From positions 596 to 64,595 of the forward strand of contig DATKGN010000013.1 of NCBI GenBank assembly GCA_035510735.1: a stretch of 64,000 nucleotides of DNA, written 5' to 3'. The translations under genes were made by a program, and so were the position numbers. This document shows positions 5,629-62,030 of the stretch, one piece after another. Source of the stretch: Patescibacteria group bacterium. GTDB lineage: Bacteria > Patescibacteriota > Microgenomatia > UBA10105 > UBA927. Below the pieces are notes generated by a model. That model saw nothing but the letters and a program-made list of their open reading frames with translations. It made no database searches and was not told where the DNA came from. How positions within the stretch are numbered: the stretch's first letter is position 1; every line of letters starts with the position of its first letter.

Positions 5629-5642
5629 GGGCTTATTAGTAT

Positions 5643-15400: not shown

Positions 15401-15453
15401 AGCGTCAGAGTTGCAAGAAAATTATCTTTACACCATCCGAATAGCTTCTGCAT
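12445..15453 (-). CDS. large polytopic membrane protein: N-terminal O-antigen ligase/polymerase-like (Wzy_C/WaaL) domain fused to a C-terminal GT-C-like membrane domain
   Basis: The 1002-aa product has more than 20 TM segments. The Wzy_C/WaaL-type motif H-x-x-L-x-E-x-G-x-x-G is present as DYHRMLGETGLLGAISFLG in the middle. The C-terminal half restarts with new TM helices and an LGDDFTW acidic loop motif. Confidence 0.55.
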   Translation of the reverse strand: MQKLFGWCKDNFLATLTLFLLAFIPLYPKLPLIDVTQTWVYIRFDDFVILASAIVLAIEFWRQKRLSSSPLQTPIFAYWGIGFISLVNALVFIFPHFAGIFFPHLAVLHYVRRIEYMVVFFLAFEAFRKKQSVLPVLYVLGGTYLAVVLYGFGQKFLGFPAFMTMNEQFAKGLPLRLPSNARFPSTFAGHYDLAAYMVLTIPIMASLIFAFTRWWQKIFFFILTFLGLIMLLFTASRVSFGVYLIVMSIMLIWQKKPIYIIPMIVLSILTLNFTSGASERFYKTFSVSNVVVDLSTGKPIGTLDKLQGQEATLQPIESPSTNTLPRGSEFINLPSQQQNNSAVKTVAYYKSVDVKGAPGSVATISGSFLIQKALVYDISITTRIQGEWPLAIEAFKRNILLGSGYSTLSVAADGDYHRMLGETGLLGAISFLGIFAAAFYLFFKYKNTLSPVERSLVIGLFAGIAGLILNAVLIDVFEASKVAYILWLLLGIAIALLARGTTITLDYIGLLKRIFTHPAAYVFYLFLAVVFVWHKTFGLYFLGDDFTWLRWAAQSNVKSIMTYFTQSQGFFYRPIPKLWYFSVFSIFWLEPFAYHLMSIFLLLCTTFFVYRILLLRKVHGFVAWCGALLFAVLASHHENVYWISGQSSMLSAMFLTMAVYFFEESFGYFHRVPKFIIGAVMVITTFFAMLSYDGLVVAPVIVLIIGLSREQKNKWLWGGLLLIPLYLFMRHSAGALAPQGDYGYKTSTVFINSVVNSVGYAIASFGGPKVVDYWMTVRSMLRQYVKEISVAVAVIGAIVVFFVVTLREKLRMFRGSLVWIAAFFISLAAYAPLGGMADRYTYIPSIFLIIAVVLACSQILHNTKRLWVSVILLLLFVLLTSWNVREVLRVGDDWIKASNTAQQALAVIKEETFPPKDYKTFFFINTPIRYGSAWIFPTGLNDAIWHMYRESPYRIIPARTLEEAFEYPIHKGDREVFIFENYQLKRGIRAEVVIPTDTTKKK

Positions 15454-46268: not shown

Positions 46269-47600
46269 TTATTGCTCTGTATATACAATAATCGTCCAAA
46301 CAGAAAGTAATAGTATAACAAACAATACAAGGATATTAAGGAGCTTCAATATTCGGCTATATTTTATCGACGGGAACACCCCAGATAATGCCCCCAAACC
46401 AACGGTGACAAGATAGGTTCTAAATACCGGATACGAAAAACCCAAGACTCTCCCCCAACTTTCCGCAAACATTGAAAGCCCGGTCACAAGATAAAATAAT
46501 GCTGATACAAAATAATCTTTGTTGAAATAATCAACTAAAAATACCGCTGTCGCAATAATGAGGAATGGATAGAACGGATACCGATACCATCCGTGAAGCG
46601 GCTCGCTTGGAATGGCAAAAATATACAGTGCGCCATATGCCAAAAATCCCATAACTACGGCGACATTCTTCTTTATGTCTTTTATCATCAGAAGTGTAAT
46701 TGCTACCCAACCGAAATATATCCATCCGTCGACCAGTGCGCGATCAACGACAATCGGGTCGCGAAACATAATAAACAAACTGTCAAAGGTTAAATCATAG
46801 CGTGCTAGCTGCAATTTCCAAAGATTCAGAAATAGCGTCTTATCCAATACTAAGCCATAGATAATAAATGATGAGAAACACAACACGGTAACAACGCCGA
46901 CAGTAATCGCTTCTTTCCACTTTTTAGAAAATAGAAATATTCCGATAACAGCAAGGGGAGCCGCCATCCAGGGGACTTTAGCCAAGGGCAGCAAACCGCA
47001 AATGAGAGAAATTGCTGTTAATAGCGTACCTGTGGGACGCTTAAGGTATCGGTCGGTAAAATACAGAGCTAACAGAAAAAACGGGATGAAAAAATTTTCG
47101 TTCTGCACGATCCGCGAACCGATAACAACCGTGGGCACTATAGCATAAAGGAAGCTTGCTAATAATCCAATCGGATTGCCGTACATCGATGATGTAAGAA
47201 GATAGACCCCCAGAATGGCTAACACTCCCAAAACCAGTGCAAGAGGCCTCATCTTGGCAATCGTCACGTCATTAAACGACCGCACCCCATTAAGCATGGC
47301 AAATCCACCAGCCACAAGCCCAAAAAGCGGAGGATGCTCTAAATACGGTGTCACTAACGTAAAATGGGCTCCTTGCGGATTGTAGTACTGGACTTTATGC
47401 GTGTATTCATCGTGCGGTGACCAGGAAGTCGGAATACCCTTCTCCCAAAGACTGACTCCCAGAAACGTCCATGCATACTCATCAAATGTCGCGCCATCCC
47501 GCGGCCATACGGTATAGTTATACGACCGCAGCATAAATCCTAAAAGGATAATACAGATAAGAATAATCTTACTATGTTTCTCAATCAGTTTTCGAATCAT
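46269..47600 (-). CDS. GT-C fold membrane glycosyltransferase, ArnT/PMT-like
   Basis: The product is 443 aa with about 11 TM. The first-loop acidic motif is RDGATFDEYAWTFLG (DE motif). Confidence 0.6.
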   Translation of the reverse strand: MIRKLIEKHSKIILICIILLGFMLRSYNYTVWPRDGATFDEYAWTFLGVSLWEKGIPTSWSPHDEYTHKVQYYNPQGAHFTLVTPYLEHPPLFGLVAGGFAMLNGVRSFNDVTIAKMRPLALVLGVLAILGVYLLTSSMYGNPIGLLASFLYAIVPTVVIGSRIVQNENFFIPFFLLALYFTDRYLKRPTGTLLTAISLICGLLPLAKVPWMAAPLAVIGIFLFSKKWKEAITVGVVTVLCFSSFIIYGLVLDKTLFLNLWKLQLARYDLTFDSLFIMFRDPIVVDRALVDGWIYFGWVAITLLMIKDIKKNVAVVMGFLAYGALYIFAIPSEPLHGWYRYPFYPFLIIATAVFLVDYFNKDYFVSALFYLVTGLSMFAESWGRVLGFSYPVFRTYLVTVGLGALSGVFPSIKYSRILKLLNILVLFVILLLSVWTIIVYTEQ

Positions 47601-48693
47601 AAGTAGTTTTTAATAATCGCAAACTCTCCCCTATTGCCGATTGCCACGTCAGACTTCTCACCCATGAGACACATTCTTTTTGCATGCGTTCATATCTCTT
47701 TGAATCTTTTTCCAATACCAAGGCTTCACGTGCCATCTCGAGAGGGGAATTGTATGACAATACAATGCCGGTTTTGCCGTTTTTAACAACGTCCACTAAC
47801 CCTGAGATATTATAGACAATCGACGGAGTCCATTGGCTGGCCGCCTCAAGCACAACCAATCCCCACCCCTCTTTGACGGAACCATGAAGTAAAAGATGCG
47901 CACGTCCCATGAAGTCAAGTTTTTCTTTCTCCGAAACCTTACCTATGAACTTTACCCGCGAATCTATATGGTATTCAGTAAGCATATCCTTGAGTTTTGT
48001 CAGATATTCTTCATCTCCGCCGCCTACAATCCAAAGCTGTGCACCCTCGTTCTCTTTTGCAATGAAAGAAAATGCTTTAATAACCTCCTCTATCCCCTTC
48101 ATCTTGACAACACGGCTCACGAATATGCAGGTAAACCGCTTATCTTTCTTTGGCATTGTTGCGGCAATACTGTTTGTTATCGGACAGGGTATGGCCGTAC
48201 AATGGCTCCTTGGAATACCAAATGATACCAGATCATCAACGGATGATGGTGCATCGGTCCAAAACGGAACCCGCCGGTATATATATAAATATGCCCGCTC
48301 CAAAAGTTTTCCAATCATATTAAATGGAAAACCCACCATGTAATCCCAAATTTCATCGGCTACTTCATGAATAAACGTAACAATCGGTTTTCTGACATAT
48401 AAAGGGGTAAAAAAAGGGATGCCGTGAATCTCATCAACGATAATATCGAATTCATCTTTGTGTGCCAGATAATAAAACGGCGCAGCCAAATATACGCGCA
48501 GAGACCCGGCAGCCCGAACAATCTTTACACCATCAATAATCTCCTCAGAGCGGGCCCCAGCATAGCTTGCCGTAAACCAGGTGACGCTGTGTCCCGCATG
48601 CACCCAACCCTTGGCATGTTCAAGCGTCACTATCTCAGCGCCGCCAGCTTTGGGATGTTTTGTGTCACGCCAATTAAAAAGTAAAATTCTCAT
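47581..48693 (-). CDS. glycosyltransferase, GT-B fold (GT4 family)
   Basis: The N-terminus is MRILLFNWRDTKHPKAGGAEIVTLEHAKGW. The C-domain reads KFIGKVSEKEKLDFMGRAHLLLHGSVKEGWGLVVLEAAS. Confidence 0.75.
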   Translation of the reverse strand: MRILLFNWRDTKHPKAGGAEIVTLEHAKGWVHAGHSVTWFTASYAGARSEEIIDGVKIVRAAGSLRVYLAAPFYYLAHKDEFDIIVDEIHGIPFFTPLYVRKPIVTFIHEVADEIWDYMVGFPFNMIGKLLERAYLYIYRRVPFWTDAPSSVDDLVSFGIPRSHCTAIPCPITNSIAATMPKKDKRFTCIFVSRVVKMKGIEEVIKAFSFIAKENEGAQLWIVGGGDEEYLTKLKDMLTEYHIDSRVKFIGKVSEKEKLDFMGRAHLLLHGSVKEGWGLVVLEAASQWTPSIVYNISGLVDVVKNGKTGIVLSYNSPLEMAREALVLEKDSKRYERMQKECVSWVRSLTWQSAIGESLRLLKTTYDSKTD

Positions 48694-48699
48694 CTTACA

Positions 48700-49506
48700 T
48701 TACCCAATATTAATTCTGAAGTTTAAATCGGGATCAAAACGCCATTTTCGCTTGCTCGCGTCATCATAATAATGAAGTATGTGTAACCGGTAAAAAACTG
48801 CGAGTGTATCTTTAATCATATTAAAAATAACGCGCCAAAAATTTCCTGATTTTATGCTACTTTTAACTCCTTCGAAATCAAGCTCAATAGGTGCTTCAAG
48901 AATCTTTGTATACCCAAGCCTATGGGCGACAGCCAATATTTCTATATCAAAGGCAAACTGTTTCACTAATAACCGAGGCAGCACATCGGACAGCACTCGA
49001 CGCCGATATAATTTCATTCCAACCTGCGTATCCCGGACGTTTACATTGAATAGTATACGAATAAGCATTTGATACCCCCAGGAAAAAATACGTCGTGCAA
49101 TCGGGTATGAAGTTTTCGATAACGGGTGACGCTTACTTCCAATCACGATGTCTGCATTATTCCAGACAAGCGTATCCAGCATAAGTGGCAACGATTCGGG
49201 CTTCAAATCACCCCCCGCATCAATAAATCCCACGACATCACCGCTTGACTGGGCCATACCATATCGAACCGCGTATCCCTTACCCTTATTAACAGCGTAA
49301 CCAACTACGATTATGCCTTTCTTTTTTACGGATTGGGCAGCCTTCAGACTTCCGTCAACCTCACCATCAATAACAATAATAAGTTCAAATGGGACATTCA
49401 TTGTTTCAAGTACCTCATAGATCGACCGGATATCACGGGCGACAGTATGCTCCTGACGGTACGCGGGCATGATGACGGAAAATAACTTAACTTTTTCGTC
49501 TGACAT
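48700..49506 (-). CDS. GT2 polyprenyl-phosphate sugar synthase-like (Dpm1/GtrB-like)
   Basis: The product is a short 268-aa soluble GT2. Motifs include FSVIMPAYRQEHTV...ELIIVIDGEVDGS and a DxD-like GFIDAGGD. It is adjacent to a flippase. Confidence 0.7.
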   Translation of the reverse strand: MSDEKVKLFSVIMPAYRQEHTVARDIRSIYEVLETMNVPFELIIVIDGEVDGSLKAAQSVKKKGIIVVGYAVNKGKGYAVRYGMAQSSGDVVGFIDAGGDLKPESLPLMLDTLVWNNADIVIGSKRHPLSKTSYPIARRIFSWGYQMLIRILFNVNVRDTQVGMKLYRRRVLSDVLPRLLVKQFAFDIEILAVAHRLGYTKILEAPIELDFEGVKSSIKSGNFWRVIFNMIKDTLAVFYRLHILHYYDDASKRKWRFDPDLNFRINIG

Positions 49507-50746
49507 AGGGGTAGTATATCAAAAGTACTAAAAATAGAATCCCGACAATGAGCGTATTATTCCAGATAATCGTATGAAGACTAGAGTGAAAAATATTCAT
49601 CGTGAGAGTTTGAGCTGCCGCTGCCAATACTGCAAATATCCATACCAGTGTTTCCCCTAGCGCGAGATACATTGTCACAAAGAGATTTGCAAGTGTGTAA
49701 AACGATATAAATAATCCGAACGATCCTAAATAGACGCTCGCCGATAAAAACGCCTTACCAAATAGCAAATTAACGACCAACGAAGGGAAAAGATAATAAC
49801 CGAGCGTTAAACCGAATGACATGATTCCAACGCCGACCAGAGACAAAAAAACGATACTCGTAAATTCTTTACCAAGTTCTTTGCGTTCCGCCAATAAGGG
49901 GAATGATACGAGACCAACCGAAGAAGAAGCAAAAAAAATAATTTTTCCTAAGACAGACAGGGATGAATATATTCCTGCTAACTCCGGAGGGAAAAAATGC
50001 TTGACCAGCACGACATCCTGACTATAAAGCGCAGTCATGCAGAATATTGCAATAAATGTCGGTACGCTATACACAATTGCCGATTTCGCGGACATACTGA
50101 TCTTTTTCGGTTTATTCGATAATATTGACCGAAGCGGGATGAGGGTTAATAGGTATCCGAATACATTGGCGATAATTCCTAAAAATAACGTCCATCCGAC
50201 GCTGATTGTGGCGCCAATAACCCCAACGATCAAGCGTAAAGCTCCTCCGATGTTCTGAAGGGCGGCAATGGCAATAAATTTCTGAAATCCCTGCAGCATG
50301 CTTATTGCAATGATCGAAAAAAGATAGGTCGCAAACATGAGATACAACCATATAAGGTAGACTGGTTGCCTGATATTAAGATACGAAGCAAAAAATTTTG
50401 TAAACGGCACCAATAGGATAAAAGCGATAATGCCGAATACCACAATACCTTTGGAGATCGATATAAATAACTGCTTTGCTTCACCTAACTCGTTCTTTGC
50501 CTTTAATTGAGAGAAAAACTTTACCATAATGTTCTGCAAAATCGTCGAAGGCGCGTTCAAAATGTAATAGATGGAAATGAGTGCCGCGAGCTCGCCGTAT
50601 CTTGCAGGCCCAAGCATCCTGCCGACGATGAGATGGTAAAGATACGCTAGGAAATTTGCGAACATCGTGCCGCCAAAAACGATAGCACTGTTTTTGACCA
50701 TAGGATGTGAAGCATATCGCGAGACGCGTGTAACAATTCGTTTCAT
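49487..50746 (-). CDS. wzx: Wzx-type oligosaccharide flippase (MOP/PST superfamily polysaccharide biosynthesis protein)
   Basis: The product is 419 aa with about 12 TM. The N-terminus reads VKNSAIVFGGTMFANFLAYLYHLIVGRMLGPARYGELAALISI, typical of PST-family flippases. Confidence 0.7.
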   Translation of the reverse strand: MKRIVTRVSRYASHPMVKNSAIVFGGTMFANFLAYLYHLIVGRMLGPARYGELAALISIYYILNAPSTILQNIMVKFFSQLKAKNELGEAKQLFISISKGIVVFGIIAFILLVPFTKFFASYLNIRQPVYLIWLYLMFATYLFSIIAISMLQGFQKFIAIAALQNIGGALRLIVGVIGATISVGWTLFLGIIANVFGYLLTLIPLRSILSNKPKKISMSAKSAIVYSVPTFIAIFCMTALYSQDVVLVKHFFPPELAGIYSSLSVLGKIIFFASSSVGLVSFPLLAERKELGKEFTSIVFLSLVGVGIMSFGLTLGYYLFPSLVVNLLFGKAFLSASVYLGSFGLFISFYTLANLFVTMYLALGETLVWIFAVLAAAAQTLTMNIFHSSLHTIIWNNTLIVGILFLVLLIYYPYVRRKS

Positions 50747-50747
50747 A

Positions 50748-51446
50748 TTACTGGAAAAAGCGATACCGCAATAACGTTATAACTGCCATAATACCATCTC
50801 TCCACGTAAGCTTTTTCCCCTCGGAGAACATGCGACCGTAATAAGATATCGGAACCTCGTAAATCTGGCACCCTGCTTTGAGCGCTTTTGCCGTAAACTC
50901 GGGTTCAAAATCAAAACGATGCGCAGTGATAACGATTCGATTAAGAACATTACGCCTGAAAACCTTATAGCCCGTCTCCATATCCGTAATATTGGTATTA
51001 TAAAGAATATTCGTTATGAACGTGACGAATTTATTACCTAACTCATACACAAACATTGTCGATAAATGCGCTCCGAGGAAGCGGGAGCCGTATACCACTT
51101 CAACCCGATCATTTTCAAACGGAGTTAAAAGTGCCTGATAATCCGCAGGGCTGTACTCCAAATCTGAGTCCTGTATAAGAATAATATCTCCCGTAGCCCG
51201 TTTAAATCCGGCCGTGAGCGCCGTCCCTTTCCCGCCGTTTTTAGGCTTATATAATACGATAACGCGACGTTCCCAGGCTTTAAGCCTCTCGCTTGTTCCA
51301 TCAACCGAGCCGTCATCTACAATGATGACCTCTTTTTTCCAACCTGGAAGCTTTTGATCATACACGCTAGTGAGAAGTGTATCGACAAATGAAACTTCAT
51401 TATAAACCGGAATAATAATGGATAATTTCTTCATGCGACGAACCAT
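50748..51446 (-). CDS. GT2 polyprenyl-phosphate sugar synthase (Dpm1/GtrB-like)
   Basis: Motifs include LSIIIPVYNEVSFVDTLL, VIIVDDGSVDGT, GKGTALTAGFKRATGDIILIQDSDLEY (DxD) and YKVFRRNVLN. The 232-aa length is classic for Dpm1-type enzymes. Confidence 0.8.
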   Translation of the reverse strand: MVRRMKKLSIIIPVYNEVSFVDTLLTSVYDQKLPGWKKEVIIVDDGSVDGTSERLKAWERRVIVLYKPKNGGKGTALTAGFKRATGDIILIQDSDLEYSPADYQALLTPFENDRVEVVYGSRFLGAHLSTMFVYELGNKFVTFITNILYNTNITDMETGYKVFRRNVLNRIVITAHRFDFEPEFTAKALKAGCQIYEVPISYYGRMFSEGKKLTWRDGIMAVITLLRYRFFQ

Positions 51447-52549
51447 CCCCGCAAGTATAGCATCGTTCCTGCAATTTGGAGAAGTGAAAAAATGATGATA
51501 AGCGTAATTTTAATTGATTTGTGAGGGATTTTGCCTAAAATAATAAAAAGCGGAAATATCACGAGAATATAACGTGGTATGGAGGAAAATGTCCCAGTTA
51601 ATGTCGGAAGCGTAAGCACAACAAAAGCGTAAACAATATATGATAGCTCTTCGCGAATACGCCATCCATAATAAAGAAGAATATAAGCCGTCATTGTAAA
51701 GACGAATTCTGCGATAGAAATACTATACGATTCTAATGTCGGTTGCCCTACGGCACTGAATATAATCTTAAAGTAGCGCCAGATTACCTGCGGCAACAGA
51801 ATGATTTCATTGCCGCTTCTATTGGCACCGAATTCGGATTGAACATGAAAAAACCGCAGAGGATCACCGGTTGTATGATATAAATAGGCCATATATAAGA
51901 CAAGACCGAGCGGGACACATAAAAATCCCACGATATCGGAAACTTTGATCTTTCTTTGCTTCATCTGAATATACTCCCATAGGACCGGGATAAGAAGAAA
52001 CACCCCGACAAGTCGGGCTGCACCGGCAAGTCCCCCGAAGAAACCGGCAAGTAAAAAATTCTTCTTTTTTGCTAATACCACGGTCGAGATAGCAAGAAGG
52101 AAAAAAAGGCCCTCTGTATAAACGGAGGTAAAAAAGAATGCTGTCGGAAAAGTGAATAAGAAAAGAATAGCCCATTTCGCAATATTCTCTGACTGCTCCT
52201 TTAGCAAATCGTATAATAAAGCCGCTCCGACGAAAAAACTGATTATTGAAATCGCTATTCCGGCATTTTCATAAGAAAGACGAACAAAATTGTGAAGATA
52301 TCGGATAGCAAACGGATAGAGTGGGAAAAATGCTTCACTATACAAAAAATGCTCTCCTTGAGCTATCTGAATATAGTGGATGCCGTCCATATTTGACCAG
52401 GGGGTTAAGCCCAAATAACCAATCCTAATTGGTACGATAAAGGAAGCCCCTAATGAAACTACAAAAAGAACGAGGCGCCAAACTAAAAACGTGATAAGAA
52501 CAAATTTATGATCCAGTAACCACTTTTTCATACGCTGCAACGGTCTCAT
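51431..52549 (-). CDS. GT-C fold membrane glycosyltransferase, tentatively PIG-V/GT76-like mannosyltransferase
   Basis: The product is about 370 aa with about 9 TM. The first loop has TPWSNMDGIHYIQIAQ (a WxxDGxHY-like motif). The start was set to the internal ATG at 52549 to avoid a 150-nt overlap with the upstream GT4. The track ORF extends to 52657. It lies directly downstream of a Dpm1-like synthase. Confidence 0.45.
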   Translation of the reverse strand: MRPLQRMKKWLLDHKFVLITFLVWRLVLFVVSLGASFIVPIRIGYLGLTPWSNMDGIHYIQIAQGEHFLYSEAFFPLYPFAIRYLHNFVRLSYENAGIAISIISFFVGAALLYDLLKEQSENIAKWAILFLFTFPTAFFFTSVYTEGLFFLLAISTVVLAKKKNFLLAGFFGGLAGAARLVGVFLLIPVLWEYIQMKQRKIKVSDIVGFLCVPLGLVLYMAYLYHTTGDPLRFFHVQSEFGANRSGNEIILLPQVIWRYFKIIFSAVGQPTLESYSISIAEFVFTMTAYILLYYGWRIREELSYIVYAFVVLTLPTLTGTFSSIPRYILVIFPLFIILGKIPHKSIKITLIIIFSLLQIAGTMLYLRGWFVA

Positions 52550-53567
52550 GAACTGTTTTTTTCCATGAGAATGACTTCGCCCATTCCAACCCGTCCAGGA
52601 TAGTCCGTTTCCGCTTGTTTTCAGGCAATGAGAGCGCAAAACCGATGCCGCGCGCAATATCTTCCGTATTCATATCGTCAACAGCTATCGACGGACCCGC
52701 TATTTCGCGTAAACTTGAGTTTGAGGCCGCGACAACAGGACATGAACACATCATCGCCTCAAGAATCGGCAACCCGAACCCTTCATAATGGGACGGTTGA
52801 ATCAAGCAACGCGCTAAACTGTATATCACGGTCAGATCTTCATCGGGTACATAGCCGGGTCTTATCAGAGAATCCCTAAAATGCAATTGTTCAATAACTG
52901 AATTTATTTCACGAGTCTCTCGTAACGATTCGTTAAGAAACGATTTTCCGATAAGAACAAGCGGTACGGAATGAAACTCAGGAGTTTCATGTATCCGGGA
53001 AAATGCTTCCAATAATCCTATGATATTCTTATTCCAATTAACATCCCCTACGTAGACGATAAATTGTTTGGGTAGGTGGTATTTTTGCTGTACGAATCTA
53101 AATAGCTGAACATCGGTAGTCGTATGAAATGACGGTGAAGGTGCCAGATAAACTGCATCAACATCTTTCGGATTTAAGCCTACAATTCGGCAAATATCTC
53201 GTTTTGACGTCTTTGAATCCGTAATAACACGATTCGTGTTTTTCAGGGCCTGCTTTTGAATAGACCATTTAATATTTCCCCTTATTCCGGACGGAAACTT
53301 ATCCGGAAAAACAAGCGGAATAACATCGTGTACTGTCACAACTGTCGGTTTGGAATGTATGAGAGGTAACGTTAAAAAAAATGGATCAAAATAAGGATAG
53401 TGGACTATATCCGCATTTTCGGATACTTTTTGTCCTCGAGTAAAAAAACTATACGAATTATTCCTTTCATACTTCTGCAACGCCTCAATGAGCAATTTAG
53501 TGTATACGCCAACTCCTCTTCCCCCGTGTCCAGATTCGAGACTAGTGATATTTATCGCAATATTCAT
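52506..53567 (-). CDS. glycosyltransferase, GT-B fold (GT4 family)
   Basis: The start was set to the internal ATG at 53567 (MNIAINITSLESGHGGRGVGVYTKLL), giving an ATGA overlap with the upstream gene. The C-terminal motif is YEGFGLPILEAMMCSCPVVAASNSS. Confidence 0.8.
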   Translation of the reverse strand: MNIAINITSLESGHGGRGVGVYTKLLIEALQKYERNNSYSFFTRGQKVSENADIVHYPYFDPFFLTLPLIHSKPTVVTVHDVIPLVFPDKFPSGIRGNIKWSIQKQALKNTNRVITDSKTSKRDICRIVGLNPKDVDAVYLAPSPSFHTTTDVQLFRFVQQKYHLPKQFIVYVGDVNWNKNIIGLLEAFSRIHETPEFHSVPLVLIGKSFLNESLRETREINSVIEQLHFRDSLIRPGYVPDEDLTVIYSLARCLIQPSHYEGFGLPILEAMMCSCPVVAASNSSLREIAGPSIAVDDMNTEDIARGIGFALSLPENKRKRTILDGLEWAKSFSWKKTVHETVAAYEKVVTGS

Positions 53568-55192
53568 AGTGTTCTCTTTCTTATATATTGAAGTATACCC
53601 CATCCTACTATGCTTACCAATGAAATAACTGAAATTCCGTCCGCGAATTTTCTCATGGGTGTTTCAGTCATATCCGCCTGAATACTGTGGACTCCCGCAT
53701 CAACATAGAAATCTAATGTACCCGCCGAGATATAATGAATAGGAACTGATTTTCCATCGACTTTAACTTCCCAGCCGGGAAAATACAAGAGGTTAATCCG
53801 TAATGATTCCGGAAAAGAAGTTGTAACGTTATAGAGTTTGTTAAGATATTTATCGTTTACCGTTTCGTAGGGCACCGAACGGCCATCCGTATCCGTAAGC
53901 ATTGAACTCGGTCGTATCTGCTTCCAGGATGTCCAAATAGTAGACAGACTATTTCCCATTGACGACGTTCCGTTTGTGAAGTTTTGGCGGGATAAATAAT
54001 ATTGATCATTGCGCGGTGCATATATTGCCCCCCGTGTATACGAAAACGAGCTGACAATGGATAAGACGACAAAAATTACGGTAATCCAGCGCTGTTTTAT
54101 AACCGAACTGACACAGGCAATAACAAAGGCGCTCATCGGTATGAGATACGCTAAGAATCTCCATGGATATTGGGTATATTGGAGAATCGGTAAAGCGTTC
54201 CAGACCGGTGTAGAGACTGGGAGCGTCATACCGATGGCCAACGCCATAACTGCCAGAATCCCAAACAATTCGAGTTTTAACTTTTTTTTGATTGAAATGA
54301 ATATTGCAGTGATGAACGCTATTACTATCCAAAACATTGGACCAATGCCTATCTGGAGGGACATAGCGTTAGCGGATACGCCAGTTCCGGAGAAGTCGGT
54401 GCCCCACGAAGGAATGAGGAGTTGTACTACACTTGCAAAATGATCACGGAAATTAACAGTGTTTAATCCAACCATATATTTCGATTCCGCGAGCGCCGGC
54501 AGCCAAAACCAACCCGCAAGCCCCATACCGCCGATGAAAGCAATCAGCCACTTCCAATTCCGTCGCCATAATACGTACACGATAAGAAATGGAAAAAATA
54601 GCATTGCTAATATATTGTGGCTTAAAATAAGAAGACTAATGGTTATAGTAAATGGTAGGGGCCAATCTTCCTCTATCACGAAAAGTGAAGCAAATACCCA
54701 GGCAATTGCCCATACTTCTCCGATTTCGCCGCGGACATACAACTCAACAAACCAATATGGCACGAATGAAGACGCTATCGTGCCAACAACGGCGGGATAT
54801 AATCCAAAGCGCTTACGAAGCCACAAAAAACAAAATAATCCGGCGGCAAGATAGCCTAATGCGGATCCGATTTTAAACGCATCGACAAATCCGATGGCAA
54901 ACAGGTGCAAAAATGCTGCCAGATAATTTGCAAATGGATACAAAAACTCAAAAACCGGTATCCCGTATCCGCTGTTTAACGTCGGAGCCCACCTTGGAAA
55001 TAAATATCCTTCCCGAAGCATTCGGTTAAACTCTACAAAACGGATAAAATGGAACTCACCATCATGTGTCGGGATAAAACTTCGACCGAAAAACGGCACT
55101 ACCGCAGAAAGTACGACTAGGAATGTCACGAGAACACCAATTACGTTTTTTTTCCGTTCCATAGTGAATTTCTTTTCATTCTCAAGGACCAC
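53564..55192 (-). CDS. polytopic membrane protein, family B (paralog 1 of 2); candidate GT-C-like transferase
   Basis: The product is 542 aa. The conserved N-terminal loop motif is PTHDGEFHFIRFVEFNRMLREGYLFPRWAPTLNSGYGIPVFEFLYP. There are about 12 TM plus a C-terminal extracytoplasmic domain and a terminal anchor. Confidence 0.5.
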   Translation of the reverse strand: MVLENEKKFTMERKKNVIGVLVTFLVVLSAVVPFFGRSFIPTHDGEFHFIRFVEFNRMLREGYLFPRWAPTLNSGYGIPVFEFLYPFANYLAAFLHLFAIGFVDAFKIGSALGYLAAGLFCFLWLRKRFGLYPAVVGTIASSFVPYWFVELYVRGEIGEVWAIAWVFASLFVIEEDWPLPFTITISLLILSHNILAMLFFPFLIVYVLWRRNWKWLIAFIGGMGLAGWFWLPALAESKYMVGLNTVNFRDHFASVVQLLIPSWGTDFSGTGVSANAMSLQIGIGPMFWIVIAFITAIFISIKKKLKLELFGILAVMALAIGMTLPVSTPVWNALPILQYTQYPWRFLAYLIPMSAFVIACVSSVIKQRWITVIFVVLSIVSSFSYTRGAIYAPRNDQYYLSRQNFTNGTSSMGNSLSTIWTSWKQIRPSSMLTDTDGRSVPYETVNDKYLNKLYNVTTSFPESLRINLLYFPGWEVKVDGKSVPIHYISAGTLDFYVDAGVHSIQADMTETPMRKFADGISVISLVSIVGWGILQYIRKRTL

Positions 55193-56295
55193 ACAACATA
55201 TAAACCTACGGGCACAACCGTTAATAAGGTTCTAAGCGTCGGTCCTGGACCCGCATAATACCCCATAAACATGTATGGAAGATTTCTAAGCTCTAATCCA
55301 ATCGAAAACGCAATAGTTAACCCCTGCTCAAACCATGCGATGTCACTAGGCATAACAACTGCAAAAAGGAAGAACCATACGGCGTACCATGGATAAAGCT
55401 CCTCCCGTAGGGGTGTAAATATAATAAAAACTGCAAATAACAGCCAAAATGACATTCTGTACAATTTATTACCTTTCAATTTGAGTAAAAGAGGCACGAT
55501 GAGGACAGCGGTCGCCCCTTTTACCAATATGGAAAGAGCCAATGCTTTCCAACCTATTAACTTATCTACAACCGACGATTTTTGAAGCAAATGAAGACCT
55601 AGGAGCGCAAGAACCATCATGACGATATCATTGTGACCGGATACAACAATTTCAATAAGAATTAAGGGGTTTAGACCGAAAAGAATGACTGCCTGCCACT
55701 GATGCGTCACTTTATAGATAAGATATAATCCTCCGATCAGCCATAGCGTTACAAATAGTTTAAAAGATATCATCGTAAGCCACACATTTCCGAATCCTAA
55801 TACATGCGGAATACCCGACAGAAGAAGCCATGTAGGACCGTAGAGCGCTACTTTGTTTGCCGCCCTTGTAAATGCCAGACTTGCTTCATTTGGGATTTCA
55901 ATAGGCATGACGATGTACGGATTTTCATGATGAGTAAAAAGCATTTTCGCCGTCGTCATGTAGTTGAATATGTCATAAGAAACCAACGAATAGGCAAAAA
56001 CTAGAATACCGTATGTCACTGCGACAGTAAGGATAATATCCCTCCCTCGGAGCTCACGACGCTTCGTCATGCGGTATGCCCACGCATACAGCACGAAAAA
56101 GATAACAAGGAATACTAAATAAATTCCGGTTACAAGCGGTCGCTCATTAAAAGCAAGCGCTGACAACCAACCGTGCAGACCGAGATAGAGAGGATTGTTT
56201 GACAATACAAGATTCTTATCAACGAAACCATAGGAAAAAATAACAAATAAAACAGTACTCACAACATAGCTCGCAAGAAGTAATAGTTTTTTCAT
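55141..56295 (-). CDS. polytopic membrane protein (about 10 TM), hypothetical
   Basis: The 384-aa product is uniformly hydrophobic with no soluble domain. It sits among GT-C candidates. Confidence 0.45.
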   Translation of the reverse strand: MKKLLLLASYVVSTVLFVIFSYGFVDKNLVLSNNPLYLGLHGWLSALAFNERPLVTGIYLVFLVIFFVLYAWAYRMTKRRELRGRDIILTVAVTYGILVFAYSLVSYDIFNYMTTAKMLFTHHENPYIVMPIEIPNEASLAFTRAANKVALYGPTWLLLSGIPHVLGFGNVWLTMISFKLFVTLWLIGGLYLIYKVTHQWQAVILFGLNPLILIEIVVSGHNDIVMMVLALLGLHLLQKSSVVDKLIGWKALALSILVKGATAVLIVPLLLKLKGNKLYRMSFWLLFAVFIIFTPLREELYPWYAVWFFLFAVVMPSDIAWFEQGLTIAFSIGLELRNLPYMFMGYYAGPGPTLRTLLTVVPVGLYVVWSLRMKRNSLWNGKKT

Positions 56296-56822
56296 TGGAT
56301 TGATAAAGCCGTTGATAGTTCGTTATGAATATATAATCGCGTCGCACTCGCACGCTCCGGCTGCCATAGAAATTCATTGGGTGTCGTTTGAAGAAGTGTT
56401 GTTATTACAGTTTTATGTGCGATTGACGCTTCCTGTATTTCACTTCGAAACTGTGTCATATCATCCCCGCTTTGTTCAGCCGTAAGAACATTCGGCATGA
56501 TCGCGGCAAACTGGTCACTTGATCTATGAAGCGCATCGATTGCAAGAAGATACTGATTATAGTCAAAGAGTGTTTTAGCCTCGACAAGATATTTATCAGA
56601 TAGTCCGAGATGGTATTTTACCTGTGCAATATTACCGAAGTACCAATACTTATTGAATGTATCTATAAGTCTTGAGAGACGGTATAATTTGTTCCCTGGC
56701 ATATAGGAGGGGTATGGCAACACATATGAAGCAAACACATTATTATGCAAAAAAAATGTTCCAAGAAACAACAATATAACTGCGGAAACCATTCGTACAC
56801 CTTTATTTCTTCGATTTTCCAT
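56292..56822 (-). CDS. N-terminally anchored/secreted soluble protein, hypothetical
   Basis: An N-terminal hydrophobic segment VSAVILLFLGTFFL is followed by a roughly 140-aa hydrophilic domain. It has an ATGA-type overlap with the downstream membrane protein. Confidence 0.4.
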   Translation of the reverse strand: MENRRNKGVRMVSAVILLFLGTFFLHNNVFASYVLPYPSYMPGNKLYRLSRLIDTFNKYWYFGNIAQVKYHLGLSDKYLVEAKTLFDYNQYLLAIDALHRSSDQFAAIMPNVLTAEQSGDDMTQFRSEIQEASIAHKTVITTLLQTTPNEFLWQPERASATRLYIHNELSTALSIQ

Positions 56823-56827
56823 AAAGT

Positions 56828-57967
56828 TTAAAAAAACTTTTTACACGAAGAGCAAAAAAGAAACACTCCGTATGTACTAATTATATATGCAATCGGCATG
56901 AAGAGTATCAAATACCGTGACGTCGTCTGGCCTGTAGATAAAAACGCTAAATATACCAATGCCCAAAGAATATACGGAATAATTATATCCGGTAACCGAA
57001 TTTTCCGGATGATCCACCCAATCCCCGTAATAACAACTACTGTAGTCGCAATCGGCCAAAGGATATTCCACTGCGGGTCGGAAATAATCGGTGAATTACC
57101 ATACCAAACATACCAACGATTGAGATAAATAAGCGGCCAAACAGTCAATGGTAATATTAACTGGCTTTGATGATACGCGAACACCCATTTTTGGATACCG
57201 AGGAATTCCCTGATCGAATATCCAAGGATAAACACCCTGATATAGCTCATAAGGAGTATGGCAATAGAAATCGGCAATGTGGCACATAACCAAACAAGAC
57301 GGCGGTATTTTGATGTGATAATCAGCGATATTCCCCATGCTGCTACGATGGTCATACCGGAGATAAAAAACTTTGTTGATATAAACAATCCTAAAAATAC
57401 GCTCGCACCGGCAAAAAACAATATATATCTTCGTTTTTTCATATAGCCGATACTGAATATATACAATGCCGCCAACAAAAATACGAGCTGTATGATATCA
57501 AGAAGCGGCGTATAAACAAGCTGGTTGGTGATGAGAGGATCAAATGTAACAATGACAACCGGCACAAGAGACCACGGAATTGATTTCGTCATCATGTAGG
57601 CCGACAGATAGACAAGAGACAATGACGCGATGAAAAACAACAAATTCATCGTATTTTCATTGTGGAAAATCAACGCGGATAGTCCGATGCTGTATCTGCC
57701 AAGCGGCGGTGTGTCGGGAGCGATAAGAATGGGCGGAACACCCCGCGCGTACGCTCCTCCCGCATATGCATTCACCGTTTCGTCTGGAATCCAACCTTTT
57801 GGATGTTTATTCGCGTATTGAGAATCGTTATACACACGAAGTAATCCAGGATAACGCTGCCAATAACTTGTATTTATGTATTCTGAGGCGTGTGCCGTCA
57901 ATACTTTACCAATATTCCAAACAATAACGAACACGCAGAAACAAATGAACAATTTTCGTAGGATCAT
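56828..57967 (-). CDS. polytopic membrane protein (about 9-10 TM) with an N-terminal extracytoplasmic segment, hypothetical
   Basis: The product is 379 aa. A signal/anchor is followed by a roughly 90-aa hydrophilic stretch (YINTSYWQRYPGLLRVYNDSQYANKHPKGWIPDE) and then TM helices. Confidence 0.45.
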   Translation of the reverse strand: MILRKLFICFCVFVIVWNIGKVLTAHASEYINTSYWQRYPGLLRVYNDSQYANKHPKGWIPDETVNAYAGGAYARGVPPILIAPDTPPLGRYSIGLSALIFHNENTMNLLFFIASLSLVYLSAYMMTKSIPWSLVPVVIVTFDPLITNQLVYTPLLDIIQLVFLLAALYIFSIGYMKKRRYILFFAGASVFLGLFISTKFFISGMTIVAAWGISLIITSKYRRLVWLCATLPISIAILLMSYIRVFILGYSIREFLGIQKWVFAYHQSQLILPLTVWPLIYLNRWYVWYGNSPIISDPQWNILWPIATTVVVITGIGWIIRKIRLPDIIIPYILWALVYLAFLSTGQTTSRYLILFMPIAYIISTYGVFLFCSSCKKFF

Positions 57968-58749
57968 GTCGTATTTCGTAAGGATAACCCTTTTATGTAG
58001 GCAAGCGGAAAGTGGAAAGCGGAATATAGAGAAAATTCAAAACCTGTTAAACCATCAATAAACCCTTTATGCCGGAGAAATATTGAAAAAAAAGTTGAAA
58101 TAGGCTTTATAAAAAAATATGTAACGACCTGCATCGGGTGTGAATATGTGTGATTTTTTACCAATTCCTGTGCAGTCAGTTTGATGTACGTATCGGCTTT
58201 TTTCCAATAGTCAGCCCGCGTCATGTAAGAATAATGAAGCATTGGGTGAATAATGTAGCCGACTTTCCCGTCAACAGCTATTTGCTCGTGGACGCTTTTA
58301 CATGGAAATGAAGCTTTCCCCCGCCGTACGAGACGCATAACATAATCTGGATATTGACCGCCTTTCTTCATTACATGACCCCAAAAATAATTCTTCCTCG
58401 GTATGAAATATCCGTTCGTACCTCCATTTTCTTTCTTATTCGTTATGGAAAGAATTTCCTCTCGAAGATTATCCGGGATCACTTCATCCGCATCTAATTG
58501 CAAGATCCATTCACCTTTGCAGGCCACAAGCGCCTTCTGTTTATTGATATGAAATATAGACGGATTATTTGTCTCAATGATATGGGCTCCGAACGTCTTA
58601 GCAATTGAGACCGTTTTATCTGTCGACCTCCCGTCAACCAACATGACTTCATCGGTAAATGATGCGACTGATTGTAAACACCGTGCAATATTTTTCTCTT
58701 CGTTATATGTCGCAATCGCAATGGAAAGAGTTATATTTTTTTCCGCCAT
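57964..58749 (-). CDS. glycosyltransferase family 2 (LPS-core-type small GT2)
   Basis: Motifs include LSIAIATYNEEKNIARCLQSV, VMLVDGRSTDKT and WILQLDADEVI (DxD). Confidence 0.75.
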   Translation of the reverse strand: MAEKNITLSIAIATYNEEKNIARCLQSVASFTDEVMLVDGRSTDKTVSIAKTFGAHIIETNNPSIFHINKQKALVACKGEWILQLDADEVIPDNLREEILSITNKKENGGTNGYFIPRKNYFWGHVMKKGGQYPDYVMRLVRRGKASFPCKSVHEQIAVDGKVGYIIHPMLHYSYMTRADYWKKADTYIKLTAQELVKNHTYSHPMQVVTYFFIKPISTFFSIFLRHKGFIDGLTGFEFSLYSAFHFPLAYIKGLSLRNTT

Positions 58750-60377
58750 ATTGTTTCGCCCAGTCCGGCAATAACGGTTAAACTCAACAGTACGCTAATA
58801 CTCATGTAATTCGCTATTTTTCGCAATTTCGTATCGGTAAAAATAATACTCACGGTGTGGTCGCCGCTTGCAATATGAAACGTTATAAGTCCGCGATACT
58901 CCGGATCCTGGAATTGCATATCTGTTTTCACCCCATCAACATAAACATTCCATCCCGGAAAATAGAGTGTATTTTCAACAAGGCGGGCGGATGTTGGTAC
59001 CGAAACCTGATAAATGTGCTTCGTGGTCGTCCGTGAAATGGGTTTAATGGTGGCTACTCCCGAGATGACCCCGATCGGATCGTTCGGCCGATGCTCCATA
59101 AACCGAACGGACCATATGGGGCTGCTCTCACCGGTATCGGTGGTCGAATTATAAATACCGGAATAATATGATTCCGGTTTTACCGAGTAGGCTTTCGGTT
59201 TCCACATCGTATAGCTTAAAACTACCGTAAGAATACAAAACCCCGCGATCACATACATCTCGTATCGCTTAAGGTGATTACAGAACGCATCGATCCCTAT
59301 GCCACCGAGTATCGAAACGGAAAACACGGAAACAGACAAGAAGCGCCACGGGAACTGAAATTTTTGAAGTAGTGTGATCTGATCCCAAATGAATGCTGAC
59401 TGGGCGGTCATGATAAACAGAGAAATGACAAAGACGGCAACCGCAGCTGAAACAAACCAAACGAATGCCTTTGTTTGCTTTCTTGTCACTGCCCATATGG
59501 CCGCCAGTACGCCAATCCACCCGGTAAATCCTATCGATTTGGACAATTCATCGCTGGTTCCGTAACTCCAACCTGAAAAAATAAATTTTATCCACGGCAC
59601 AAAGCGGTCAGAAACCCCACCGGCAGTCACGATATCACGGAGTGTATATTTCCCCTCAAATTCCGCCGGAATCCAGAAAAATGCCGATAATCCAAATCCG
59701 CAAAAAAACGCTACAAGACTAGAAAAAAGAAAAACGTTGTCCTTCTTTGTGACGAAAAAATAAAGATAGATAATATACAAAAGAATGATCGGCATAAACA
59801 TGATGGATATTGCGTTATGTGAAAGAATAAGCGCAGCGACTGTGAGAGAAACCCCGATCGCATACCATACCTTTTTATTCAGAGCAGCTCTGTTATGGGC
59901 AAGGCAAAATAATAAATAGAGAACGAGAGGCGGAAAAACGAATGCAATGTGTTCACCGATTGCTCCGCGGACTGCCATATCAACGAATCGATACGGTGCA
60001 AACGCATATAAAACCGCAGCTATTACCCCGACCCTCTTATTGAAAGCAGCCGCAGCCCAAAGATACATCATAAGTGCACTTGCGATATACGCCACGACGA
60101 ATACCAATTTCGTCGCATCAACAAAAGAAAATCCAAAGGCATGAAAGAGCGATGCAACATATGACGGCAACGGATACAAAAACATGAGAATCGGATGACC
60201 GTAGCCCCAATTGAGATTCGCCGCCCAGCGAGGTACGAGGTTCCCTTCAGACAGAGACTGGTAAAAATTTGCGATCCGAGCCACATGATCCGGCCCGTCA
60301 TGGGTCACCGGAAGACCGGGAACTAAAAAATACAGGAGAGGCAATATGCAAAGACTTACAATAATTATCCAATTCAT
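58731..60377 (-). CDS. polytopic membrane protein, family B (paralog 2 of 2); candidate GT-C-like transferase
   Basis: The product is 548 aa. The N-terminal loop motif PVTHDGPDHVARIANFYQSLSEGNLVPRWAANLNWGYGHPILMFLYP matches the 53564..55192 product. Confidence 0.5.
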   Translation of the reverse strand: MNWIIIVSLCILPLLYFLVPGLPVTHDGPDHVARIANFYQSLSEGNLVPRWAANLNWGYGHPILMFLYPLPSYVASLFHAFGFSFVDATKLVFVVAYIASALMMYLWAAAAFNKRVGVIAAVLYAFAPYRFVDMAVRGAIGEHIAFVFPPLVLYLLFCLAHNRAALNKKVWYAIGVSLTVAALILSHNAISIMFMPIILLYIIYLYFFVTKKDNVFLFSSLVAFFCGFGLSAFFWIPAEFEGKYTLRDIVTAGGVSDRFVPWIKFIFSGWSYGTSDELSKSIGFTGWIGVLAAIWAVTRKQTKAFVWFVSAAVAVFVISLFIMTAQSAFIWDQITLLQKFQFPWRFLSVSVFSVSILGGIGIDAFCNHLKRYEMYVIAGFCILTVVLSYTMWKPKAYSVKPESYYSGIYNSTTDTGESSPIWSVRFMEHRPNDPIGVISGVATIKPISRTTTKHIYQVSVPTSARLVENTLYFPGWNVYVDGVKTDMQFQDPEYRGLITFHIASGDHTVSIIFTDTKLRKIANYMSISVLLSLTVIAGLGETIWRKKI

Positions 60378-60383
60378 ACGTAA

Positions 60384-62030
60384 TTAATGATCTGTAATGT
60401 GAATGGCATCCGTTCCGTCAAGATATTTGATTGTATCAAGCGTGCCCGCTGGAATTTCTTTCGGCGTGCCGATATACAAGGTTTTTCCGTCTTTCACTTC
60501 ACGGCCCCAGTCAATAGGTCGAAAATCGTAAATATCGAAATGATTTTTCACTTCAGCGAAACCACCCGAAGCGGTCCCACCACCCTTTAAGTAGGCAACC
60601 GGATCATATTTCGTATAAAAAAGGAAAAACATGTGCGGCTGTTCAAGCTTTGTAGAAACAACAATTTTTGTATATTGATTTCTATGCACCCGTGCGTACT
60701 CAACCGCCTGTTTATATCCGTACTGCCAGTACTCCGAAAACTCATGATCCATATGGACGTAATACATATCAAGATAATAGGCGAGATTAAATATCGCTAC
60801 TCCAACCAGCACGATAATCCAAATACGGCGAAAACGAGATCCACTCTTAACCCACAACAGAAAAGAAATCAAACCGAATGCGGTGAACAGTTGAAAAACG
60901 GGAAGAAAAACTAACGTCCGTATGGCGTGGGGCAGCTCGGTTGTCACTGATGCTGCAACCGGTGCGATAAGAAACCAAGAGAAGAGAAGGATACTCAGTT
61001 TTCCCCCGCGCTTCCACACTGCCACCATGCCCCACAAAAGAAACGGCAGCTCCCAGAGGTACAATAATCCCATATCTGGCGCATGATGCCGCGGATTATC
61101 ACCGTTTAAGAAAAGCCATTGAAAAGAATAGTGAGATATGTACCCATCAAATATGGTCTTCGCCCAAACAAGCCGCCGGTTGTCAAATAGGACTCCCAAT
61201 TTATTACCCGCTTCAAGATCATCTTCCAGAAGCTGAGTACTCCGTGCGAGTAAACCTGTCTGATCGGATAAAGAACTGGTGCCTTTGAGGCGCATAAGCG
61301 CCGTGGGATTTAACGATACGATAATGAGAGGCAGTACGGTCAATAAACCGATCACAAAAGCCACAATAACGCTACGCGAACGGCTGATAAACTCCTTCCA
61401 CGTTAATGCAACGATGATGAGAAATATGAGCGGCGCAAAAACCCGTTCACTATGATATGCATAAAGAGACAATCCGAACAAAAATGCGCTCAAAGCCAAC
61501 CACCACGCTGATTTTCGCCCCCGGAATAGTGCATAGGCGCCCCAAATATTTAAAGTGACGCCGGTATTCGCTTCAAAGGCTATCCGGGAGAACTGGATGT
61601 GCCACGGCGATATTGCAAGTAAAAATGCAGCAAAAAGTGGTATGAACGATTCCCTGTGATCACTTTTTTCGCGCCGATCAAGCAAAATGAGTTCCTGCGT
61701 GAGGAAATACACGCCTAAAACAGCAAACAACCCCATAATCGCCGACGGGAGCCGAACGGCCCACACAGTAAGCCCGAAAACAGCAACAGACGGGATTGTC
61801 AGATAGACGTAAAGCGGTGGCTTATAATCATCATAGGATCGAAGCGATAAGGGCAGCTTCGTTCCGTACTCATCCCTGCCGGTTTTCAGAATTGAATACG
61901 CATTGTACCCAAGGGCAACTTCGTCCCAATCAGGGCTTACCGGAACCTTCCCGAGCTGCCAAAACCGCAGAACCCCTGCGATGAGCATTATAAAGATAAG
62001 TAACAATACTTTTTTGGAAAGTATATTCAT
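60384..62030 (-). CDS. GT-C fold membrane glycosyltransferase, ArnT/PMT-like (tandem copy 1)
   Basis: The product is 548 aa. Motifs include VSPDWDEVALGYNAYSILKTGRDEYGTKLPL, YDDYKPPLYVY and RLPSAIMG. Confidence 0.65.
   Translation of the reverse strand: MNILSKKVLLLIFIMLIAGVLRFWQLGKVPVSPDWDEVALGYNAYSILKTGRDEYGTKLPLSLRSYDDYKPPLYVYLTIPSVAVFGLTVWAVRLPSAIMGLFAVLGVYFLTQELILLDRREKSDHRESFIPLFAAFLLAISPWHIQFSRIAFEANTGVTLNIWGAYALFRGRKSAWWLALSAFLFGLSLYAYHSERVFAPLIFLIIVALTWKEFISRSRSVIVAFVIGLLTVLPLIIVSLNPTALMRLKGTSSLSDQTGLLARSTQLLEDDLEAGNKLGVLFDNRRLVWAKTIFDGYISHYSFQWLFLNGDNPRHHAPDMGLLYLWELPFLLWGMVAVWKRGGKLSILLFSWFLIAPVAASVTTELPHAIRTLVFLPVFQLFTAFGLISFLLWVKSGSRFRRIWIIVLVGVAIFNLAYYLDMYYVHMDHEFSEYWQYGYKQAVEYARVHRNQYTKIVVSTKLEQPHMFFLFYTKYDPVAYLKGGGTASGGFAEVKNHFDIYDFRPIDWGREVKDGKTLYIGTPKEIPAGTLDTIKYLDGTDAIHITDH

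Follow-up and report, generated by a model that had tools for sequence, protein, structure and literature searches.

A candidate transmembrane glycosylation module with a Wzx-type flippase in a cell-surface glycan island of a Gottesmanbacteria-like bacterium

Bacteria of the candidate phyla radiation (CPR) have not been cultured, and next to nothing is known of their envelopes. Here, we describe four adjoining genes that may form a multi-component transmembrane glycosylation module, encoded within a 64-kb stretch of DNA (the window) from contig DATKGN010000013.1 (assembly GCA_035510735.1) of a Gottesmanbacteria-like CPR bacterium. Comparison of homologues and related loci identifies Candidatus Gottesmanbacteria as its nearest named relatives. 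A search of the literature on glycosylation by glycosyltransferases (GTs) of the GT-C type in CPR bacteria returned no paper.

All four open reading frames (ORFs) lie on the minus strand, at the coordinates given in a first-pass annotation of this DNA. In the order of transcription, they encode a PIG-V/Gpi18-like GT-C of 372 aa (51431-52549), a GT2 of 232 aa that we call GT2-B (50748-51446), a flippase of 419 aa assigned to the MOP/PST (Wzx) type (49487-50746), and a second GT2 of 268 aa, GT2-A (48700-49506). Of the three junctions between successive genes, the first is an overlap of 16 nt, the second a 1-nt gap and the third an overlap of 20 nt. The first-pass annotation had placed the GT-C gene downstream of the other three; given the minus-strand orientation, it is instead transcribed upstream of them. 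Its ORF reaches back to a TTG at 52657, and the identical protein on other contigs starts six codons later than the 372-aa form, giving 366 aa from the Met at 52531. Two GT4 genes, likewise on the minus strand, border the set: GT4u upstream (52506-53603; PF00534/PF13692) and GT4d downstream of GT2-A (47581-48693; PF00534, 114 bits). The transcription order is thus GT4u, GT-C, GT2-B, flippase, GT2-A, GT4d and then a PMT_2-family GT-C gene (46269-47600).

Both GT2 proteins match PF00535 (77 bits for GT2-A, 121 bits for GT2-B), and neither contains a hydrophobic segment. Their best sequence relative in the PDB is in both cases the dolichol phosphate mannose synthase (DPMS) of P. furiosus, 5mlz (E 4e-12 over residues 9-213 of GT2-A; E 9e-17 over residues 6-211 of GT2-B). 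ArnC and GtrB come next for GT2-A, and ArnC is also a relative of GT2-B (E 2.5e-13, residues 3-212). The alignments of both proteins with DPMS, ArnC and GtrB span the acceptor half, up to about residue 211; those with conventional GT2s end mostly near residue 100-150. The top NCBIfam models are PpgS, ArnC and AglJ for GT2-A, and AglJ for GT2-B (106 bits, under the equivalog cut-off of 325 bits). We also set the ten GT2s found in the window against a reference panel consisting of E. coli ArnC, YfdH (GtrB), WcaA, WcaE and PgaC. ArnC or GtrB was the best reference for only two of the ten, namely GT2-A and GT2-B, while the other eight were closest to PgaC, WcaA or WcaE; the best reference for GT2-B was ArnC, and YfdH was matched by both.

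For GT2-A, an AlphaFold (AF2) model (predicted local distance difference test score, pLDDT, 79) was searched against the PDB with Foldseek, and the best 16 matches were ArnC, DPMS and GtrB structures (E 2e-16 to 2e-12, TMq 0.61-0.71). Both proteins are most likely polyprenyl-phosphate glycosyltransferase-like, GT2-A by predicted fold as well as by sequence. The first-pass description of two short Dpm1-like enzymes without transmembrane (TM) segments thus agrees with the PDB, NCBIfam and E. coli panel comparisons, in which DPMS, ArnC and GtrB, and not the processive or conventional GT2s, are the closest relatives. The same annotation had credited both proteins with a characteristic sequence motif and a DxD. 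This is true of GT2-B, which has VIIVDDGSVDGT and a DSD that aligns to DAD in DPMS; GT2-A carries VIDGEVDGS, and an invariant D96-A-G-G-D100 (DAGGD) at the position of the DAD.

Throughout the GT2-A family, the invariant DAGGD replaces the DxD of Dpm1, GtrB and ArnC, and VIDG replaces DDGS. Even so, no other protein of the module is as well conserved as GT2-A in the wider Microgenomates loci. At its C terminus, GT2-A has an amphipathic helix (residues 223-241; hydrophobic moment, muH, 0.62) together with a basic tail of invariant sequence, KRKWRFDP(E/D)LNFR. The two GT2s are 27% identical to each other, and the presence of two synthases might mean two different lipid-linked donors.

The 419-aa protein encoded between the two GT2s has 12 hydrophobic segments and scores 27.8 bits against PF01943, slightly under the cut-off of 28.2 bits. 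We found 228 homologues, and most among the 120 listed carry PF01943 and/or PF13440; their source names include "oligosaccharide flippase family" and "O-antigen/teichoic acid export". By family membership the protein is a MOP/PST (Wzx-type) flippase, as first annotated, and the only MOP-family gene in the window. MurJ was considered as an alternative identity and ruled out by family (PF01943/PF13440) and by size (12 segments, 419 aa). A profile search of the PDB yielded no solved relative of the flippase, and the similarity of its profile to E. coli RfbX and WzxC was not significant, so that its cargo cannot be inferred from homology.

The 372-aa protein itself gave no Pfam match, even at E<=1. 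Over its full length, it is 35% identical (E 2e-60) to a Daviesbacteria protein that is recorded with PF04188 and adjoins the same flippase. Among 40 aligned homologues, 14 match PF04188, seven GT87 and four PMT_2, and several are named "Gpi18-like mannosyltransferase". Its AF2 model (pLDDT 93.5) retrieved only GT-C enzymes or GT-C-like subunits among the top 38 Foldseek matches in the PDB, including AglB/STT3/PglB, PIGU, Emb, ALG3/9/12, GPI-MT-I, PimE, ArnT and ALG6; a profile built from the alignment found no solved relative by sequence. We conclude that the protein is a GT-C with a confidently predicted fold, and that by sequence its family often matches PIG-V/Gpi18 (PF04188, GT76), which upholds the PIG-V-like label of the first-pass annotation. 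The WxxDGxHY-like loop noted there is also real: WSNMDGIHY lies in the first external loop, and 39 homologues show no variation at D55, G56 and Y59. By analogy with other GT-Cs, D55 may have a catalytic role.

To see how these genes travel together, we used a comparative set of 84 Microgenomates loci, comprising four contexts found via the exact protein plus 80 loci for which each species contributed one genome. ORFs were called as the longest ORF and labelled by their best BLASTP match to the proteins of the window; the resulting counts are approximate. A GT2-A orthologue was present in 79 of the 84 loci and stood directly after the flippase gene in about 72. Directly before the flippase gene, we found the PIG-V-like GT-C in 37 loci and GT2-B in 28. 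GT4u (71/84 loci), usually just upstream of GT-C or GT2-B, GT4d (61/84) and a conventional GT2 (65/84) were kept as well. In the window, the latter is a 261-aa protein encoded at 57964-58749 on the minus strand, matching PF00535, with PgaC as its best E. coli reference and GmaR as its best PDB match. The wider pattern therefore runs from the 57964-type GT2 through GT4u, the PIG-V-like GT-C, the MOP flippase and GT2-A, sometimes followed by an extra gene, to GT4d, and it is seen in Daviesbacteria, Woesebacteria, Shapirobacteria, Levybacteria and Roizmanbacteria. A homologue of the initiating enzyme Bac_transf occurred within 10 kb of the flippase in none of the 84 loci.

GT2-B behaves differently. 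Its orthologues (61-71% identity) are essentially confined to Gottesmanbacteria-like loci, and one is present in all 22 loci whose MOP protein is at least 39% identical to that of the window. The PIG-V-like gene stands directly upstream of GT2-B in five Gottesmanbacteria-like loci and in the window. Accordingly, the widely conserved triad is a PIG-V-like GT-C, then MOP, then GT2-A, with GT2-B as an addition. The first-pass picture of a flippase flanked by two synthases thus extends across Microgenomates in its GT-C/MOP/GT2-A linkage, and essentially only to Gottesmanbacteria-like lineages in its second synthase. Median identities to the window proteins were 57% (GT2-A), 66% (GT2-B), 35% (flippase), 36% (GT-C) and 41-42% (the two GT4s). 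That the two GT2s show the highest conservation in the module would fit housekeeping donor synthases that feed many GT-Cs.

Some relatives carry extra genes in or beside the module. Near-identical ATPase-like genes of 453 or 385 aa split GT4u from GT2-B, or GT2-B from MOP, in several of them (related loci L017:7957-9318, L019:7894-9255, L021:8830-9987 and L016:1128-2285). We considered these as alternative GT-Cs and rejected them, as the products are soluble, P-loop ATPase-like and have no TM segment; they look like selfish insertions splitting the operon. ORFs of 120-155 aa adjoining GT2-A were similarly considered as GtrA- or GacJ-like partners and rejected, being mostly soluble helical proteins, none of them conserved. 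Soluble helical proteins of 120-141 aa that share NI(V/T)EG recur in or beside the module in several genomes (L021:12135-12506, L032:12047-12424, L061:12044-12469, L063:13917-14291, L064:13855-14217), in three of these five between GT2-A and GT4d. They may resemble four-helix-bundle proteins of the rRNA intervening-sequence type.

The taxonomic titles of the public metagenome-assembled genome (MAG) records with the module are a further point of note. Many are titled "uncultured Gammaproteobacteria bacterium" (L012, L013, L015-L017 and others), and a few go under Woesearchaeota, Bathyarchaeia or Clostridia. Their gene content suggests that such records are mislabelled or misbinned. A genuine occurrence of a MOP plus GT2-A-like pair in DPANN archaea is possible (L060, L089; 29-33% identity).

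The four genes are part of a much larger assembly. From 2967 to 63727, the window is a near-continuous, co-directional and tightly packed glycan island of about 60 kb, all on the minus strand save for the sole plus-strand gene of the window, a GT4 at 30509-31657. For at least eight genes of the island there is evidence of GT-C family membership, and for two others such evidence is faint. The island also holds seven further unassigned polytopic proteins, ten GT2s, about ten GT4s, methyltransferases and sugar-nucleotide enzymes, and is unusually rich in GT-Cs for a small-genome CPR bacterium. The first-pass annotation was hence right that the locus contains many further GT-C candidates. Besides the PIG-V-like gene, the GT-C family genes are PMT_2/PMT genes starting at 11012, 38971, 46269, 58731, 60384 and 62027, and an MptA_B orthologue starting at 55141. 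The gene at 46269-47600, which ends the transcription order given above, encodes 443 aa and matches PF13231 with 49 bits; the last three PMT_2/PTPS_related genes are consecutive (58731-63727; 548, 548 and 566 aa) and were assigned by family matches. The protein encoded at 55141-56295 (384 aa) has no Pfam match itself and is 48% identical to an orthologue in related locus L004 recorded with PF26314, the MptA_B_family; this candidate MptA/MptB-family GT-C is a likely consumer of lipid-phosphate sugars. Faint Pfam signals of GT-C type came from the gene starting at 22781 (AftD) and from that at 53564-55192, a polytopic membrane protein of 542 aa with 11 hydrophobic segments and a sub-cut-off YfhO-like match (PF09586, E 0.0016), which we list as a GT-C candidate. 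For the seven large polytopic proteins, Pfam at E<=1 gave no usable match.

The middle part of the window is occupied by GT4s and GT2s, by methyltransferases and epimerases/dehydratases, and by one hexapeptide transferase. At its promoter-distal end, the island encodes an initiating phosphoglycosyl transferase of the Bac_transf type (PGT; 4990-5628; PF02397, 202 bits) and a ManC-like nucleotidyltransferase (PF00483 and PF22640), which together occupy 4990-6725 on the minus strand. A DUF4012 protein (677 aa, one TM segment; 2967-5628 region, minus strand) overlaps the start of the Bac_transf gene, and the genes directly beyond these encode RecO and an aminoacyl-tRNA synthetase of class II. Nowhere in the 64 kb is there a gene of GtrA size or an intergenic gap that could hold one, and the window contains no tRNA or Rfam element. 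Nor did any protein of the window give a Pfam match to a Wzy polymerase or O-antigen ligase, an absence that is not conclusive given the seven unassigned polytopic proteins.

Three other features of the island caught our attention. A minus-strand gene at 12445-15453 encodes a protein of 1,002 aa that has about 19 hydrophobic segments, was matched by no Pfam family even at E<=1, and might represent a giant or fused GT-C or else a polymerase; related locus L004 has a 999-aa gene, cut by the end of the locus and also without a Pfam match. Between 28000 and 36000, the G+C content falls from about 0.42-0.45 to 0.35-0.37. This segment, which contains the plus-strand GT4 and two polytopic proteins of 578 and 579 aa without a family match, may represent a cassette that is variable or subject to horizontal exchange. 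Lastly, a 176-aa single-TM DUF5667 protein is encoded among the GT-C genes (56292-56822, minus strand), and its position is kept in related loci (a DUF5667 match in L006, a 178-aa gene in L004); it may serve the pathway as an acceptor or accessory protein.

What could these genes do together? The best-supported reading, and one we give an even chance of being correct, is a multi-component transmembrane glycosylation module set in a cell-surface glycan island. In such a module, GT2-A, acting at the membrane's inner face, would charge polyprenyl phosphate with one sugar taken from a nucleotide sugar, and in Gottesmanbacteria-like lineages GT2-B would carry out the same reaction with a second donor. 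The MOP/Wzx-type protein would then flip the polyprenyl-phosphate sugar to the outer leaflet, where the PIG-V-like GT-C and the other GT-Cs of the island would move the sugar onto a surface glycan, a glycolipid or a protein. The three-component logic of synthase, flip and GT-C had already been put forward in the first-pass annotation, and the families of the parts and the linkage of their genes support it; the cargo of the flippase is not readable from sequence. The analysis shows the families and folds of the parts and the linkage of the genes; which lipid is charged, what the flippase carries, which sugars are used and where they end up are inferred.

Two statements about parts of this scheme deserve grades of their own. 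We think it probable that GT2-A is a lipid-phosphate glycosyltransferase whose product, or a derivative of it, is moved by the flippase, a statement that holds equally for the oligosaccharide scheme discussed below. A stronger version, in which the MOP family is a dedicated polyprenyl-phosphate-monosaccharide flippase that forms a unit with a TM-less synthase, is tentative and on balance doubtful. If so, the amphipathic helix and basic tail of GT2-A might dock on the flippase and thereby replace a GacJ/DPM3-type anchor, and a single synthase-flippase pair might supply all GT-Cs in Microgenomates.

Several observations weigh against the glycosylation module as just described. The canonical DxD is missing from GT2-A. 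All NCBIfam equivalog scores of the two GT2s (AglJ, PpgS, ArnC, DolP-hexose transferase) are far under their cut-offs, and neither protein has the C-terminal TM helices known from GtrB and ArnC (two) or P. furiosus DPMS (four). There is also no GacJ/DPM3-like small partner; the module in the window has neither a gap nor a small ORF, and the small ORFs of relatives encode soluble proteins. Most Gottesmanbacteria-like loci contain GT2-B and MOP with no PIG-V-like gene nearby. Since the whole 64-kb island is equally tight, overlap of the genes alone is weak evidence of coupling. The remaining adverse points, namely the conservation of GT4u, GT4d and the conventional GT2 alongside the flippase, the Bac_transf gene in the same co-directional island, and the fold neighbours that follow ArnC, DPMS and GtrB, bear on the alternative explanations below.

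Because GT4u, GT4d and the 261-aa GT2 are co-conserved and the island includes a Bac_transf gene, a lipid-linked oligosaccharide has to be considered as cargo, and oligosaccharides are indeed what Wzx-type proteins usually carry. One such scheme, modelled on AglJ, is the main rival, though we judge it to be rather unlikely: GT2-A would place the first hexose on polyprenyl phosphate, GT4u, GT4d and the 261-aa GT2 would extend the resulting polyprenyl-phosphate-linked oligosaccharide in the cytoplasm, MOP would flip it, as has been proposed for Agl15, and a GT-C would transfer or extend it outside. The scheme explains why these three genes surround MOP and GT2-A in 61-71 of the 84 loci, and a Dpm1-like initiator would in fact be needed where no PGT is encoded within 10 kb, as is the case in all 84. 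It still leaves the GT-Cs of the island in need of lipid-phosphate-monosaccharide donors and a route for flipping them, for PIG-V-, PMT- and MptA/B-type GT-Cs use monosaccharide donors. The best family match of GT2-B, AglJ, attaches the initial sugar of an oligosaccharide linked to dolichyl phosphate (PMC3871713), which is in favor of the scheme; the PDB matches of GT4u and GT4d are generic (MshA, BshA, GlgA) and uninformative on acceptors.

Alternatively, MOP might flip an undecaprenyl-pyrophosphate-linked repeat unit begun by the Bac_transf PGT and built by the GT4s and GT2s, with the Dpm1-like GT2s merely supplying side-chain donors that are flipped by something else. We regard this conventional Wzx pathway as improbable. 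The PGT match (202 bits) and the ManC-like gene in the same co-directional island, the presence of only one MOP-family gene in 64 kb, and the source annotations as "O-antigen/teichoic acid export" speak for it. However, the PGT gene is 45 kb away from the flippase gene, none of the 84 loci has a PGT near MOP (10 kb) as compared with about 72 in which GT2-A is adjacent, and, with the caveat of the seven unassigned polytopic proteins, no Wzy or O-antigen ligase was matched by Pfam in the window. Least probable, and in our view very unlikely, is that GT2-A glycosylates a phosphorylated soluble acceptor, with the adjacency to the flippase being incidental. The soluble phospho-acceptor enzymes GpgS and MpgS do come straight after ArnC, DPMS and GtrB in the fold search (E ~1e-11), they also appear in sequence searches with GT2-A, and GT2-A has no TM helices. 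Nevertheless, the E-values of ArnC, DPMS and GtrB are better by four to five orders of magnitude, the gene order with flippase and GT-C is kept in about 72 loci, and the conserved amphipathic C-terminal helix and basic tail of GT2-A likewise speak against a soluble role.

Returning to the proposed transmembrane glycosylation module, its conservation in Gottesmanbacteria, Daviesbacteria, Woesebacteria and their relatives leads to the prediction that lipid-phosphate sugar donors serve these bacteria for decorating the cell surface on the outer side of the membrane, and the module names the likely synthase and flippase. The widespread, tight adjacency of synthase and flippase genes offers a clean test case for Wzx-type proteins as carriers of lipid-phosphate monosaccharides, in addition to its practical value for annotation and as a candidate set for heterologous assays. 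Should the flippase prove to be dedicated to such cargo, the pair would provide a genetically defined and widely conserved model for the flipping of donors of the mannose-phosphate-lipid type.

Donors of this type are known from eukaryotes and mycobacteria. In eukaryotic DPM1 with PIG-V (GPI-MT-II), and in mycobacterial Ppm1 with PimE, MptA and MptB, a TM-less Dpm1-type subunit gives mannose-phosphate-lipid to GT-Cs. The island resembles these pathways in its PIG-V-like family, its MptA_B-family orthologue and its ManC-like gene, and the fold search with the GT-C matched PimE and GPI-MT-I, among others; the richness in GT-Cs recalls the mycobacterial set. The GT-C of the window itself reaches no Pfam threshold. 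To our knowledge, no protein that flips dolichyl-phosphate mannose or polyprenyl-phosphate mannose has been identified in eukaryotes or mycobacteria, whereas here a flippase candidate is encoded between the synthases.

With regard to layout, a close precedent is the Gac system of S. pyogenes. There, the cytoplasmic, TM-less GT-A enzyme GacI makes the polyprenyl-phosphate sugar with the small membrane helper GacJ, the Wzx-family protein GacK is the proposed flippase, and the GT-C GacL transfers the sugar outside, all from clustered genes (10.1101/180810; PMC8035078, Fig. 2b). The module shares this "type b" layout of a clustered cytoplasmic GT-A, Wzx-type flippase and GT-C, and its two GT2s are TM-less like GacI (PMC8035078). 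It differs in having no GacJ-like small membrane partner, in the two synthases that flank the flippase, in a GT-C of PIG-V/Gpi18-like type, and in its CPR host, where it sits amid at least eight other GT-C genes.

An archaeal counterpart is the AglD/AglR/AglS system of Haloferax volcanii, in which a Dpm1-like GT2 charges dolichol phosphate and AglS transfers mannose outside (PMC3871713). Again the parts correspond, namely a Dpm1-like GT2, a Wzx-type flippase and a GT-C, and AglJ is the top NCBIfam model of GT2-B, albeit with a score (106 bits) far under the equivalog cut-off. In contrast to the archaeal system, the host is a bacterium and the synthase and flippase genes are adjacent, while aglD lies outside the main agl cluster (PMC3871713). 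For Agl15, a paralogue of AglR, an oligosaccharide has been proposed as the flipped substrate (PMC3871713), so homology cannot decide what the flippase described here carries. A role as lipid-phosphate-monosaccharide carrier has been proposed for both GacK and AglR and is treated as unconfirmed (10.1101/180810; PMC8035078; PMC3871713).

The same logic of GT2 synthase, flippase and GT-C is found in GtrA/GtrB/GtrV of phages and enterobacteria and in CsbB/GtcA/YfhO of Firmicutes (PMC8035078). Their flippase is of the small GtrA type with three to four TM helices, as opposed to the 12-segment MOP protein of the window, and their synthases have two C-terminal TM helices that are lacking in GT2-A and GT2-B. 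The first-pass annotation had proposed that a MOP flippase stands in for GtrA, which agrees with the window, where nothing of GtrA size is encoded; the idea as such is not new, given the precedents of GacK and AglR (10.1101/180810; PMC8035078; PMC3871713). Compared with the Gac and Agl systems, the module differs in its CPR host, in a synthase with DAGGD and without a GacJ-like partner, in a PIG-V/Gpi18-like GT-C, in its setting within a very GT-C-rich island and, in Gottesmanbacteria-like lineages, in a second synthase.

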